Below are positions 9,255-29,968 of a DNA stretch of 36,878 nt, in pieces. Numbering within the stretch: position 1 is the stretch's first letter; each line of letters opens with the position of its first letter. A program made the position numbers and the translations under genes. This DNA is from a bacterium (lineage in GTDB: Bacteria > RUG730 > JBDRED01 > JBHPKP01), in assembly GCA_042566505.1 (NCBI GenBank), contig JBHPKP010000010.1, positions 1-36,878 of the forward strand. The letters are read 5' to 3'. The notes under the pieces are model-generated. The model saw nothing but the letters and a program-made list of their open reading frames with translations, was not told where the DNA came from and made no database searches.

Positions 9255-9554
9255 ATGCAAAAAAACAAATTGTTCATTGGAAACTTGAGCTACAGTATTA
9301 CTGAGGATGAGTTGAAAGAAGAAATTCAGAAGACTGCATCCCCTACAAGTGTCAAAATCATTGAAGGAAAAGGATTCGGTTTTGTTGAATTCGAAAGTGA
9401 TGAAGATGCTGACAAAGTAAGAGAAGCTCTTAATAACCAAGACTTCAAAGGTAGAACAATGAGAATTGATTTCGCAAGACCAAAGAAACCTGGTATGGGT
9501 GGCGGCGGAAACTTTTCAAAAAGAAATGATTTTGGAAGAATTAAAAGATATTAA
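9255..9554 (+). CDS. RRM-type RNA-binding protein (glycine-rich C-terminus)
   Basis: RNP2 motif LFIGNLSY, RNP1 motif KGFGFVEF, and a GMGGGGNF tail. AGGAGG lies 6 nt upstream of the start. Confidence 0.85.
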   Translation: MQKNKLFIGNLSYSITEDELKEEIQKTASPTSVKIIEGKGFGFVEFESDEDADKVREALNNQDFKGRTMRIDFARPKKPGMGGGGNFSKRNDFGRIKRY

Positions 9555-24554: not shown

Positions 24555-25571
24555 ATGATAAATCACATAATTTGGAAAAACAATAAACTGATTTGTTTAG
24601 ATCAGACAAAACTTCCACTTAAAAAAGAATTCTTTCAATGCAAAAATTATTCAGATGCCTGTAAGTCGATAAAAGATATGATTGTAAGAGGTGCGCCACT
24701 AATTGGAATAACTGCTGCATATGGAATTGCGCAAGCTGTTTATCAAAAACCTACTCTAACGAAAATATATTTTGCGAAAGTGTGTAATGACTTTACAAAA
24801 ACCAGACCAACAGCAGTAAATTTATTTTGGGCAATAGATAGAATGAAAAAAGTATTTTATAAAAACTATAATAAAAAGAATCTTTCACAAATACTTATTT
24901 CAGAAGCTAAAAGAATTCATAAAGATGATATTGAAATCAACAAGAAAATAGGTTTGAATGGTCAAAAACTCATCAAAAAGAAGATTAACATTTTAACGCA
25001 TTGCAATGCTGGAGCTTTGGCAACTGCAGGGTATGGCACAGCGCTTGGTGTTATTCGGGCTTTGCACGAAAAAGGTAGAGTAAATATGGTTTATGTGGAT
25101 GAGACCAGACCGTATTTGCAAGGCGCACGTCTTACTGCTTGGGAACTTATGGAAGATAAAATTCCATGTAAGTTAAATTGCGATAATATGGCAGGCTATC
25201 TTATGTCCAAGGGTTTGATTGATCTGGTTGTAGTTGGTGCTGATAGAGTTGCTGCAAATGGTGATGCTGCAAACAAAATTGGTAGTTATTCATTATCGAT
25301 ACTTGCAAAATATCACAGAATCCCATTTTGGGTTGCAGCGCCTGTTTCTACGTTCGACATGAAAACAAAAAATGGTAATGATATCATTATCGAAGAACGT
25401 CCTATCGAAGAAGTGACTCATTGTAATGGCAAACTTATAACTCTCAAAAAAATGAAAGCTGTTAATCCGTCATTTGATGTTGTTCCATTTAAAAATATTT
25501 CTGCGATTATTACGGAAATGGGAGTAATAACTAAATTACAAGATATAAAAAATATTACCCAACGTAAATAA
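24555..25571 (+). CDS. mtnA: Methylthioribose-1-phosphate isomerase (eIF-2B alpha/beta/delta-like family)
   Basis: RGAPLIGITAAYG, TRPTAVNLFWA, ILTHCNAGALATAGYGTALGVIRA and GADRVAANGDAANKIGSY are the MtnA/eIF2B signatures. Confidence 0.8.
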   Translation: MINHIIWKNNKLICLDQTKLPLKKEFFQCKNYSDACKSIKDMIVRGAPLIGITAAYGIAQAVYQKPTLTKIYFAKVCNDFTKTRPTAVNLFWAIDRMKKVFYKNYNKKNLSQILISEAKRIHKDDIEINKKIGLNGQKLIKKKINILTHCNAGALATAGYGTALGVIRALHEKGRVNMVYVDETRPYLQGARLTAWELMEDKIPCKLNCDNMAGYLMSKGLIDLVVVGADRVAANGDAANKIGSYSLSILAKYHRIPFWVAAPVSTFDMKTKNGNDIIIEERPIEEVTHCNGKLITLKKMKAVNPSFDVVPFKNISAIITEMGVITKLQDIKNITQRK

Positions 25572-25652: not shown

Positions 25653-26335
25653 ATGCACGATTCAAAAAAAATTAATTTACCAAAAACATCTTTTTCCATG
25701 AAAGCAAATTTGGCAAACAAAGAACCAATGATGCAAAAAGACTGGGAAAAGAATAAAATATATTCAAAGATTCTCGATAAAAATAAATCCAATAAACATT
25801 ATATTCTGCATGATGGTCCTCCATATGCAAATGGCAATATTCATATTGGGCATGCCTTAAATAAAATCTTAAAAGACATAATCATTAAGTTTGAAATGAT
25901 GAAAGGAAATTATGCGCCATATGTTCCGGGTTGGGATTGTCATGGTCTTCCGATAGAGTTTCAGCTTTTAAAAGAAATGAATACTGACAAAAATAAAGTT
26001 GATCAGCTTGACTTTCGAAAAAAAGCAGCAAAATTTGCAAAGAAATGGATCAAAATTCAAAAAGAGGAATTTAAAAGACTTGGAATTTTTGGTGATTGGG
26101 AAAATTCATATCTTACACTTGATCCAAAATATGAAGCAGTTATTATTAGATCGTTTAAAGAAATTGCAAAAAAAGGTTATATTTATCGAGGACAAAAGCC
26201 TGTATATTGGTGTAAGTCATGTGAAACAGCATTAGCAGAAGCCGAAGTAGAATACGCTGACCACAAGTCACCATCTGTATTTGTGAAATTTCCGTTAAGA
26301 CAAATAGACTTAAAAATTATAGATGACATAAAAAA
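25653..26335 (+). pseudogene. ileS: 5' fragment of isoleucyl-tRNA synthetase, about 225 codons of an expected ~1000 or more
   Basis: HIGH motif region [38 protein letters not shown] and [32 protein letters not shown]. Homology stops near 26335. The rest of the ORF, to 26546, is the antisense of the mutS fragment. Confidence 0.7.
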
Positions 26336-27520
26336 TACTTTTATTATTTCATTTGAACTTTGCAGGCTTTCACAAATTTTAGGTAAAATTTCAAGCGACA
26401 TTTTTAGTCCAACAATATCACGAGGAGTATTTGCATTACATGAAATCCTACTAATTAACCTATCAATATCACGTATATTTTTTAGATTTTCCCTAATAGA
26501 TTCCCGAATACTATTATTTTCAACGAAGAATTTTACAATTTTTTGACGTATTTTAATTTTTTTACTATCTAATAAAGGCTTTAATAACCAATCTTTAATT
26601 TTCCTTGAACCCATTGGAGTAAGTGTAGTGTCAATGCAGTCTAAAAGACTGTGCTTCCTTTTTCTAGTGTAATAATTTTCTACAAGTTCTAGATGCCTTA
26701 TTGTATTTTCATTCATAAGCATGAAGTGATTTGGATTATATATTTTAATTTGTTTAAGATGTTCAGATGCAGACTTATAATTTCTCGTTACATAATTGAG
26801 CATGTTAATACTGGCATTGAATAATGTTTTAGATGTTATGTTTTTTTTGACAACTTTATTAACCAAATTTTCATTAAGTAGGTTTGCATCTGAATAATTG
26901 TTATCAAGACTTGTTGAAATTGCAGAAATATTTTTTTTAATTGTGTTTATTAAAGGTAAATTATCAAATTCTGCAGGTAAAATTATTTCAGTTGGTGAGT
27001 ATTTTTTGATTTCTGAAATTATAGAATCAATATCATTTAAATTATCAAATAATGCTCCTAGAAAATCACCTGTTGAAATATCAATAATTGTTAGACCAAG
27101 TTCATTTGTGTCAAGATCGGGAAATAAACCTAAGATGTAATTATTATTTTTTTCATCGAGCATATTCTCCTCAACTACAGTGCCGGGGGACATAACTCTT
27201 ACTACTCCGCGCTTTACAATTTTTGTTCCTTTTGAAGGTTCCTCTAATTGTTCACATACACCTATTTTATTCCCGGATTTTAAAAGTTTCGACATGTAAT
27301 TGCCTGCACTATGATGAGGTACACCGCACATTGGTATACCATTTCTTTTGGTGAGCGTAATACTTAAAATTTGTGATGCTTTTTTTGCATCATCTTCAAA
27401 CATTTCATAAAAATCACCCAAACGAAAAAAAACAATAATATCAGGATATTTATTTTTTACCTCATAATACTGTTTCATGAGAGGTGTAACATTTGTGTTT
27501 GGAGCAGCTTTTTGGGTCAT
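26336..27520 (-). pseudogene. mutS: 5' fragment of DNA mismatch repair protein MutS (mismatch-binding, connector and part of the core domain only; no ATPase domain)
   Basis: TPLMKQYYEVKNKYPDIIVFFRLGDFYEMFEDDA...PMCGVPHHS...IGVCEQ (domain I) and LDCIDTTLTPMGSRKIKDWLLKP (domain III start). Homology ends at about aa 393. The ORF tail, to 26183, is the antisense of ileS. Confidence 0.7.
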
Positions 27521-27529
27521 TTATTTTTC

Positions 27530-27811
27530 CTACTGCATCCAATTACCAAGACACTCAATGACTTTTAGAGCTTGTTCCTTATTCGAAATGTTAAATTTGG
27601 ATTTTTGGCTATACATATCATTTTGTTTTCTATATCTTCTTATTGAGTATTTATCAGCACTATATTTATTATTTTTAGGTTCCCACTGTTGATATTTAAA
27701 AATAATTGTAGTCCATGCTCCTCTGGTTAAAACATGTTTATCCAGTTCTTTTACCAGAACAACCCCATCTTCTTCATAAGTAATCGTAATATCATCTATT
27801 GTTGCAAACAT
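27530..27811 (-). CDS. Hypothetical 93-aa protein between the AlbA_2 gene fragment and mutS
   Basis: An ORF tightly packed on the same strand, with 9-nt gaps to both neighbours. No family was recognised. Confidence 0.35.
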   Translation of the reverse strand: MFATIDDITITYEEDGVVLVKELDKHVLTRGAWTTIIFKYQQWEPKNNKYSADKYSIRRYRKQNDMYSQKSKFNISNKEQALKVIECLGNWMQ

Positions 27812-27819
27812 ACGCCCTC

Positions 27820-28359
27820 CTATTTATTTTTTATAGTTATGGTGTAGTATCCACCAGCTTTTCTACTGCCTTTACGCTCAATTAGATTTAACTCTATTAA
27901 TGCATTTATTTGTCGTTCTATCGTCGCAAGTGACCTATCATTGAACTTTGTTGATAAGTCTTTCGCTTTTATTCCGGGATTATCAGATATAGTTTTATAC
28001 AATGTTTTTAATCCCTCATTTAATCCCTCAGAAGTAGACGCTTTCGTTTTATATAAAGTAACTACAAAATTAGAACCGATTTCTTCATATGCTGGTTCCG
28101 GTAGTTCAGCATCTTTTATTAAAGTATTTATTTTTTGTATTCCGGATCCCCAACGTTCTACATATCCCGTAAAATACAGCATTTCAGCAATAGCCGGATT
28201 ACGCAGTACAGATTTATGTTTTTTATTTAAATCTTTAAGTCTAATACCGTCAGGAAGTCTTCCAGGTGACCATATTTCAACACGATCATCGAAGACAGCT
28301 ATGTCTATATGCCCAGAAATCATATAATCTCTATGAATAACAGCATTGACGATTGGTAT
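27820..28359 (-). pseudogene. C-terminal half (HATPase_c_4-like plus wHTH) of an AlbA_2-domain Schlafen-like putative regulator, separated from its N-terminal half by a mobile element
   Basis: Begins ...IVNAVIHRDY, the conserved motif joining the AlbA_2 and HATPase_c_4 domains. Continues ...VEIWSPGRLP..., WGSGIQKI, and a C-terminal wHTH. The track ORF starts at a TTG at 28377, which lies inside the element. Confidence 0.7.
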
Positions 28360-29968
28360 ACAATTGGTAATTTTCAATATTTTGCTCCTTGTAACTATTA
28401 GTAATAGGTATACAATGTTTAATAGTAATTCCTTCTGGAGATACGAGCACTTCCTTCACAATAAGACGCAATATTTTTTGACGTTCTTCTAAATTCAAAT
28501 TATTTGCTGATTGACCTAAATTCTTTAAAAATCCTTCAAGATTATCAGCAAAATCTAATTGTTGCTGCTGATTTAAAAATTTCATCTCCAAAGACTCCAA
28601 CTCTACTTTTAATGTTGTTTCTCTTTTCCTTAAATCCGGCATCCTCTCACGCAACTCAGACAATGGAAGCAAATCTTCTTGATATGCATCAAGCAATTTG
28701 TCCATGCCTTTCTTAATTCGAATTTGTTCTTTGATAAGCTTATCTTTGCGAATTTGAATTGGCGCTGTCTCCTGTGCTCTTTTAGCTTTTTTATTAATTT
28801 CTGCTCGAACTATTTCAGGATTCTCTAAAAGCTTCATCACTTCACTCCATACTAATTCATCCAAATAATCTTGCCGAATAGGACGATTTGAGCAAACCTT
28901 CTCTACACCCATCCTCCAACGTTCTGAACGCGAACAACGATAATAATGTAGCTTCTCTCCTTTCCTATTATACTTAGGTCCTGACACACGGTATATTGCA
29001 TAACCACATGACTCACAAACCAAAAGACCCTGCAATAGTGTATTAATTTTTGTATTACGTGTAGAAAAATGCTTATTCTTTGATAAGCGTTCTCGAGCTA
29101 ATTCAAATGTTTCTTTAGAAATGATTGGCAATACAGGCACAGATATCCACTCACTTTCAGGTCTTTCACGAGTCAAGTATCCTTTTGCAGGTTTTCCTCT
29201 CCAACGATTCCTTTTAGACTTAACATCCCTTATGCTTTCATGTCTTCCAAATGCTGCTTGGCCTTTATACGCGGGATTTTTTAATAGCTGGGCAACTGTC
29301 CGTGGCAACCATTTCCCTTTTCCTGTACTTGTACTAACTCCCTCTTGATTTAGCCATCTCGCAATACCTAATATTGATTTTCCTTCCTCACTATATGCTT
29401 CGAATACTCGACGTACCACTTCTGCTTGTTCTTCTACTATTTCATATGATGCATTATTATATTCCGTCTTTTTGTTATAACGATATCCATATGGAGCACG
29501 ACTAAGAACATTCACATTCCCCATTTTTGCCTGATGTTTCTTCCCTCTTCGGCTTCGTTCTACTATTTGCGCTCGTTCATATTCTGCTATCATACCTTGA
29601 AACTGCAGCAATAATTCCTCTTCAGGCGTATTTGCCTTTGGCGATTTTATAAATATTATTTCTGCTCCTGCTCGATTAAATTCTTCTATTAATAATACTT
29701 GATATGCATATTTCCGACTTAATCTATCTGGAGAATATATCAATACTTTCTCTATTTGACCTTCACTTGTTAAATCTCTCAATCTTTCTAGTCCTGGTCG
29801 GTTTAAATATGCTCCACTATATCCATCATCTTTAAAATACCATTCATCAGGAATTTTGTAACCTTGCTCAGATGCATATTCTTTTAATGCGTTTACTTGA
29901 CTATCTATTGTATGATCTTCCTTTTGACGATCAGATGATACCCGCGTATATATCGCTGCTAATTTCAA
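28331..29968 (-). CDS. Large serine recombinase (resolvase/invertase catalytic domain, recombinase domain, zinc ribbon and coiled coil)
   Basis: N-terminal AAIYTRVSSDRQ (catalytic Ser), the zinc ribbon CESCGYAIYRVSGP...YYRCS, and a C-terminal coiled-coil region. The 545-aa length is typical of phage-integrase and transposon-type serine recombinases. Confidence 0.9.
   Translation of the reverse strand: MKLAAIYTRVSSDRQKEDHTIDSQVNALKEYASEQGYKIPDEWYFKDDGYSGAYLNRPGLERLRDLTSEGQIEKVLIYSPDRLSRKYAYQVLLIEEFNRAGAEIIFIKSPKANTPEEELLLQFQGMIAEYERAQIVERSRRGKKHQAKMGNVNVLSRAPYGYRYNKKTEYNNASYEIVEEQAEVVRRVFEAYSEEGKSILGIARWLNQEGVSTSTGKGKWLPRTVAQLLKNPAYKGQAAFGRHESIRDVKSKRNRWRGKPAKGYLTRERPESEWISVPVLPIISKETFELARERLSKNKHFSTRNTKINTLLQGLLVCESCGYAIYRVSGPKYNRKGEKLHYYRCSRSERWRMGVEKVCSNRPIRQDYLDELVWSEVMKLLENPEIVRAEINKKAKRAQETAPIQIRKDKLIKEQIRIKKGMDKLLDAYQEDLLPLSELRERMPDLRKRETTLKVELESLEMKFLNQQQQLDFADNLEGFLKNLGQSANNLNLEERQKILRLIVKEVLVSPEGITIKHCIPITNSYKEQNIENYQLYTNRQCCYS

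Follow-up and report, generated by a model that had tools for sequence, protein, structure and literature searches.

The locus examined here raises a simple question: have two conserved genes been cut and joined in a living chromosome, or did the join arise on the way from the cell to the contig? Within the 36,878-nt stretch of DNA that was analysed (the window), a complete contig of an environmental genome, the 5' fragments of ileS, encoding isoleucyl-tRNA synthetase (IleRS), and of mutS converge and abut directly. A sequence-only reading of the window had described this arrangement and offered an inversion or an assembly chimera as its cause. Pfam, NCBIfam, PDB and position-specific profile scoring all confirm the arrangement, and both causes stay formally possible. 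The features around the junction are the following.

24555–25571, + strand: MtnA-like gene of the IF-2B family, the immediate upstream neighbour of ileS (Pfam; synteny with the relative L002)
25653–26348, + strand: ileS 5' fragment, IleRS residues 1–232 (Pfam, PDB, TIGR00392, alignment and profile fit to nt 26348)
26183–26347, - strand: the last 54 codons and the stop of the MutS ORF, lying antisense to the ileS coding region
26345–26350, no strand: junction; IleS codon 232 (att, 26346–26348) and MutS codon 391 (gaa, 26350–26348, - strand) both use nt 26348
26348–27520, - strand: mutS 5' fragment, MutS residues 1–391 (Pfam, E. coli MutS, alignment, PRK05399 and profile fit)
26349–26546, + strand: the last 65 codons and the stop of the IleS ORF, without IleS homology, lying antisense to the mutS coding region
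27530–27811, - strand: 93-aa ORF preceding mutS by 9 nt, the native neighbour of the fragment on this side

On the left of the junction, the + strand ORF at 25653–26546 (297 aa) was recognised from the ORF listing and homology as the N-terminus of IleRS. Pfam tRNA-synt_1 covers its aa 27–209 (profile positions 2–188 of 414), the structure of Staphylococcus aureus IleRS (1ffy) aligns with aa 4–224, and TIGR00392 (ileS) matches at positions 2–212 of 861 with 277.9 bits, against a cut-off of 621.4. Of the Rossmann fold, the fragment comprises the first half, where the HIGH motif lies (aa 64–67), and it is cut mid-fold, breaking off one residue short of [I/V]-WTTTPWT, the start of the CP1 editing domain. 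WTTTPWT is invariant in 89 of 89 IleS relatives and absent from the ORF; profile and domain matching also found no KMSKS, Anticodon_1 or CP1 editing domain in it. The part that is present keeps 71 of the 71 columns invariant among aligned relatives and contains no frameshift and no stop. Judged by these matches, the ORF falls short of a functional isoleucyl-tRNA synthetase as represented by TIGR00392. The nearest IleS N-terminus in the protein database (5.8 billion proteins) is 67% identical. As the accessions of PolX (MFC1566630) and of the MutS fragment (MFC1566632) leave a single number, for the gene between PolX and ileS, none is left for the ileS fragment, which is apparently without a protein record and therefore presumably annotated as a pseudogene.

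Regarding mutS, the - strand ORF at 27520–26183 (445 aa) was assigned to the N-terminus of MutS on the same grounds. E. coli MutS aligns with its aa 12–388, and PRK05399 matches at positions 2–379 of 793 with 362 bits (cut-off, 480). The fragment holds domains I (with the mismatch-binding motif GDFYE, aa 35–39) and II, and the beginning of domain III. The earlier statement that the homology is limited to domains I to III is thus borne out by the Pfam matches MutS_I, MutS_II and MutS_III, the last covering just positions 1–122 of 194 (about 60%). The ORF lacks what remains of domain III, as well as the clamp (IV) and the ATPase (V). Here too, every column invariant among aligned relatives is kept (66 of 66), with no frameshift and no stop, and by the measure of TIGR01070 and PRK05399 the ORF is not a functional MutS. 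It is deposited as MFC1566632.1, a hypothetical protein with the locus tag ACFL4A_02200 from the organism ‘bacterium’, and its nearest MutS in the protein database is 41–42% identical.

The ends of the two homologies were located with position-specific profiles made from 89 IleS relatives (anchored on WTTTPWT) and 76 MutS relatives (anchored on DIER), and p values were obtained by ranking window peptides against all stop-free peptides from the six frames of the window. By this scoring, both homologies stop at nt 26348, within about 3 nt. The shared endpoint proposed from the sequence alone therefore stands, and its position, given as about 26335, moves 13 nt further right. On the IleS side, ‘KNTFII’ (up to nt 26348) fits the six positions that precede [I/V]-WTTTPWT (p = 0.002). 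On the MutS side, ‘SSNE’ (26359–26348, - strand) fits the profile (p = 0.009), and the eight residues after it in the MutS frame show no fit (p = 0.31). The sequence reads …GACATAAAAAATACTTTTATTATT up to the break and TCATTTGAAC… after it. According to the profile fits, the two parents have at most a few nucleotides (tatt) in common at the junction, a limit that is soft because MutS is variable here in its closest relatives. The two ORFs overlap by 364 nt, and each tail is, as had been pointed out before, the antisense of the other conserved gene.

Two alternative readings of the junction sequence were tried and rejected. One was a k-mer of 15–21 nt shared by both parents at the join, given that ‘KNTFII’ (+) and ‘NEIIKVFF’ (-) both looked family-like; the profile test backs the IleS reading (p = 0.002, as above) and not MutS beyond aa 391 (p = 0.31). 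The other was a continuation of MutS homology past the junction. In the frame of the MutS ORF, ‘TNTDGDLWS’ (26258–26284) is read from the strand opposite the conserved IleS ‘HKSPSV’ codons, and its ‘T.TDGD’ resembles the MutS ‘T-x-K-D-G-G-I-I-K’ in register (p about 5e-4; the p values for the ORF tail range from about 5e-4 to 2e-3). This strongest stretch sits on DNA that is unambiguously ileS, and we judged the resemblance to be a coincidence.

Inverted repeats, IS copies or recombinase sites, by which an inversion would be recognised at its breakpoint, were not found at the junction: the best local inverted repeat nearby is a 10-mer (26279 and 26368), at about chance level. Nor does any repeat of at least 14 nt from the junction region occur elsewhere within the window. 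This agrees with the earlier observation that the junction has no repeat, which had also been used as an argument against misassembly. The observation holds within the window but the argument does not, because the misjoining repeat occurs only once in a chimeric contig.

One could argue that nothing is broken at all, and that the two ORFs are true genes that are naturally short or split, i.e. a stand-alone N-terminal piece of IleRS and a MutS I–III piece, each with its remainder elsewhere. Many database matches are indeed of similar short length. However, the short homologues that were examined (L001, L002, P0075 and P0046) are not split genes, and most of the other short matches are labelled ‘partial’, which is consistent with truncation at contig ends. 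In L001 and L002, relatives from Omnitrophota and ENA, ileS is frameshifted at 7-nt tandem repeats and its remainder lies directly downstream. The truncated MutS P0075 (440 aa; L094:6001–8623 and L095:1821–4443) has a 294-aa MutS_V ORF about 415 nt downstream, and P0046 (396 aa; L097:6001–8609) is followed by an overlapping 474-aa ORF, with the rest of mutS in cis; the carriers of both may be natural mismatch-repair-defective lineages. The idea, raised with the first description of the locus, that the two ORFs might be full-length members of unusually short families thus meets with homologues that are broken genes with their remainder in cis, and neither a conserved C-terminus nor conserved partner ORFs, the marks of a naturally split or short family, were found. 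Furthermore, both homologies stop at the same nucleotide, each C-terminal tail is mere antisense, and IleS is cut within a fold, one residue ahead of an invariant motif. We regard the short-gene explanation as effectively refuted and leave it hardly any probability.

The repeats in these two distant relatives (GTCTCAG in three copies and CTTACCA-like; L001:6600–6760 and L002:6640–6720), beyond which the remaining ileS is in another frame, lie in the variable loop just before WTTTPWT, the same loop in which the ileS of the window ends. The frameshifts could be real mutations or assembly errors, and the loop appears prone to indels.

On both sides, the contig is ordinary chromosome right up to the break. 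The left arm, of about 25 kb, carries mostly + strand housekeeping genes (lptA/lptB, MoxR, amidase, cstA, metH, plsX-fabH-fabD, PolX and the IF-2B/MtnA-like gene), and the right arm carries 10.5 kb of - strand genes, including asd, an ECF T component, truA and an SPFH protein. The relative L002 has the gene order IF-2B, small ORF, ileS, lspA, and the window has IF-2B, ileS(1–232), antisense mutS; the 93-aa ORF next to mutS gave no family match in Pfam or NCBIfam. Proximity of ileS and mutS in relatives would have favoured a small local deletion or inversion; the two genes lie within 10 kb of each other in 0 of the 93 loci of relatives, a weak result given how distant these relatives are. The arms correlate at 0.99 in their tetranucleotide profiles and have GC contents of 31.9% and 32.1%, so that both arms come from the same genome or from an indistinguishable one. 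With such similar composition, a chimera between species was rejected. The sign of the GC skew flips at the junction; a replication terminus was considered here and also rejected, the switch not being independent evidence, since skew follows gene orientation and PolX, a - strand gene of the left arm, likewise has a negative GC skew.

The junction rests on one assembly of a very isolated organism. No other assembly of the source organism was found in the protein database, the GTDB species representatives or the JGI metagenomes, and a scan of the latter with the MutS fragment returned only relatives of at most 38% identity. The protein database holds no protein with about 100% N-terminal identity to either fragment. 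It also yielded no second IleS with a matching N-terminus, a search that covers N-terminally similar copies only. A DNA pattern for ileS running on into WTTTPWT, made of the final 14 nt of the ileS fragment followed by degenerate WTTTPWT codons, had 0 matches in the GTDB species-representative genomes, a collection without the source genome.

Could the junction be a real chromosomal rearrangement of the sequenced organism? It would then be the product of illegitimate, microhomology-mediated recombination, in one of two forms: an inversion that broke each of two co-oriented genes once, or a deletion of everything between a convergently oriented ileS and mutS. The inversion does produce exactly this junction, as first proposed, but it is not the sole rearrangement to do so, the outcome of the deletion being identical. 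The same sequence also results from any chimeric joining of a locus with another in reverse complement. In both forms mutS would be inactivated, resulting in a mutator, and the charging of isoleucyl-tRNA would rely on a second ileS elsewhere. In favor of such an event, the junction is clean and lies inside a long contig, with native gene context on both sides and identical composition of the arms, and a long k-mer common to both sides, which would account for a graph misjoin, is not evident. Natural mutS pseudogenes exist, such as P0075, a truncated MutS found on 23 contigs. Some bacteria also have two IleRS genes, as in the mupirocin-resistant MupA/MupB models.

On the other hand, ileS is an essential gene, and no second copy was detected among N-terminally similar ones. 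Both fragments are fully undecayed, and the genome decay that had been predicted from the loss of mutS is not seen: the ORFs of the window are long and have ordinary domain matches, except for one gene split by a mobile element, invariant residues are kept, and there is no excess of broken genes of the kind that a mutator would accumulate. A real event must therefore be extremely recent and yet dominant in the sample. It would also have left no repeat, IS or recombinase site at its breakpoint, and it is known from one assembly only. Overall, we consider a real rearrangement unlikely. Its fullest version, in which a very recent inversion or deletion in an uncultured, deep-branching bacterium cut mutS together with the canonical ileS and a mismatch-repair-deficient lineage lives on a second, unlinked IleRS, we hold to be decidedly improbable.

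If real, the locus would represent a natural mutator lineage with an implied second isoleucyl-tRNA synthetase, a case of moderate interest and not new in kind. It resembles the natural mutS/mutL mutators with frameshift pseudogenes (P0075, for example) in that mutS is truncated after domain III and the copy is non-functional. In those, however, the remainder is present in cis or across a mobile element, whereas here there is none and the fragment abuts a truncated essential gene. In Streptococcus pyogenes, prophage-like islands are integrated in the mismatch-repair operon.

A mobile element is found 2 kb from the junction. A gene of ~452 aa with AlbA_2 (Schlafen-like) and HATPase_c_4 domains (27820–31466, - strand) is split by an insert of ~2.29 kb (about 28348–30635), whose cargo is limited to a 545-aa large serine recombinase (28331–29968) and one or two small ORFs (29931–30478). 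The best NCBIfam matches of the recombinase are CcrB and XisF, both below cut-off. CAATC and TGTATAC (28356–28362 and 30623–30629) are present at both ends of the insert, the recombinase ORF ends within the resumed host gene, and PDB 3lmm aligns unbroken over the artificially rejoined host gene (‘…LAIRETISN’ followed by ‘NAVIHRDY…’). From these features, the insert looks like a minimal gene-interrupting integrative element, similar to those of SpoIVCA/skin, XisF/fdxN and Ccr/SCC, which large serine recombinases excise. Given an integrated element, an active site-specific recombinase exists or existed in the source genome.

Hence, the junction could be attributed to this recombinase, for instance through inversion between pseudo-attachment sites in ileS and mutS, and the enzyme is intact and sits on an element truly integrated in a neighbouring gene. 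But large serine recombinases are highly site-specific, the junction is unlike the ends of the element (…CAATC[A/G]T…TGTATAC…), and no junction 12-mer or longer recurs near it. The element of the window splits a gene, as do those of the known systems, but it is not at the ileS/mutS junction and has no sequence in common with it. The problem of ileS essentiality persists as well, and we find an origin of the junction from this recombinase very hard to credit.

In our assessment, the junction at nt 26348 is probably an intragenomic chimeric join that arose in library preparation, amplification or assembly, and we infer that it is not biological. The two flanks come from loci that are not adjacent, or from opposite orientations of the source genome, and two unrelated genes are cut at one nucleotide, as in a chimera. 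An artefact is favoured because the essential IleRS is truncated before its editing domain, KMSKS and anticodon-binding domain; because the junction has been seen in a single, once-assembled environmental contig; because neither an IS, nor an inverted repeat above chance level, nor any resemblance to the recombinase element was seen at the breakpoint; and because both arms have the same composition, with normal synteny up to the break on each side. The lack of decay in the fragments points to an event without evolutionary age, as expected of an artefact.

According to this explanation, the left arm (1–26348) would end inside ileS, and the right arm (26349–36878) would be a distant segment of the same genome, in opposite orientation, ending inside mutS. 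The join could have been made in a chimeric DNA molecule formed during whole-genome amplification or library construction, or by an assembler taking a wrong path through a thinly covered region. The living organism would have both ileS and mutS intact, and their 3' parts would be on other contigs or unassembled.

Published base rates are in line with an artefact. In simulated data, about 65% of misassembly breakpoints are inside coding sequences (PMC9661791), and an estimated 3–12% of real metagenome contigs are misassembled, inversions and relocations being two of the standard categories (PMC10174551). The contig is like the ‘inversion’ and ‘relocation’ misassemblies of QUAST/metaQUAST, which are the target of metaMIC and ResMiCo, in that non-adjacent segments of the same genome are found in one contig, the breakpoint is in a CDS, as most are (PMC9661791), and it bears no biological breakpoint signature. 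It differs from them in that the join has no demonstrable shared repeat or k-mer. A misjoin arising purely in the de Bruijn graph, through a k-mer of at least 21 nt present in both parents, is not supported and is less likely than a chimeric template molecule: with so few nucleotides apparently shared, an artefact needs either such a molecule or a coverage gap. Counting against an artefact is the behaviour of assemblers, which normally end contigs where the graph branches; a contig of 37 kb running through a minority chimeric path needs an explanation.

In multiple displacement amplification (MDA, phi29), >85% of the chimeras are joined in inverted orientation and over 70% show just 2–21 nt of microhomology, and in vitro chimeras need only 0–21 nt of it (PMC1855051). 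The blunt or near-blunt inverted join at 26348 is consistent with these statistics. As in the MDA chimeras of Lasken and Stockwell (2007, PMC1855051), the join is an inverted one within the same genome, with 0 to few nt of microhomology; unlike them, described as mostly intramolecular within one branched molecule, it connects points that must be >10 kb apart, since there is no overlap between the arms. The NCBI title of the MutS-fragment protein does not have the ‘MAG:’ prefix borne by the metagenome-assembled matches in the same tables, a weak hint that the genome is possibly a single-cell or otherwise amplified one.

If the join is an artefact, the consequence is practical: any inference on synteny, the replication terminus or gene loss should start from two pieces divided at nt 26348, and the apparent loss of mutS and ileS in the source genome should not be taken at face value.

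Other genes in the left arm also drew our attention. A 99-aa protein with an RRM domain (9255–9554, + strand) is followed by a 672-aa protein (9663–11681, + strand) in which Pfam finds a U-box domain of eukaryotic type (E = 1e-15). Both are atypical for bacteria and characteristic of lineages that interact with hosts. Further downstream, the only family match of a 1084-aa protein (11819–15073, + strand) is a weak one to an adenylate/guanylate cyclase domain at aa 794–916.
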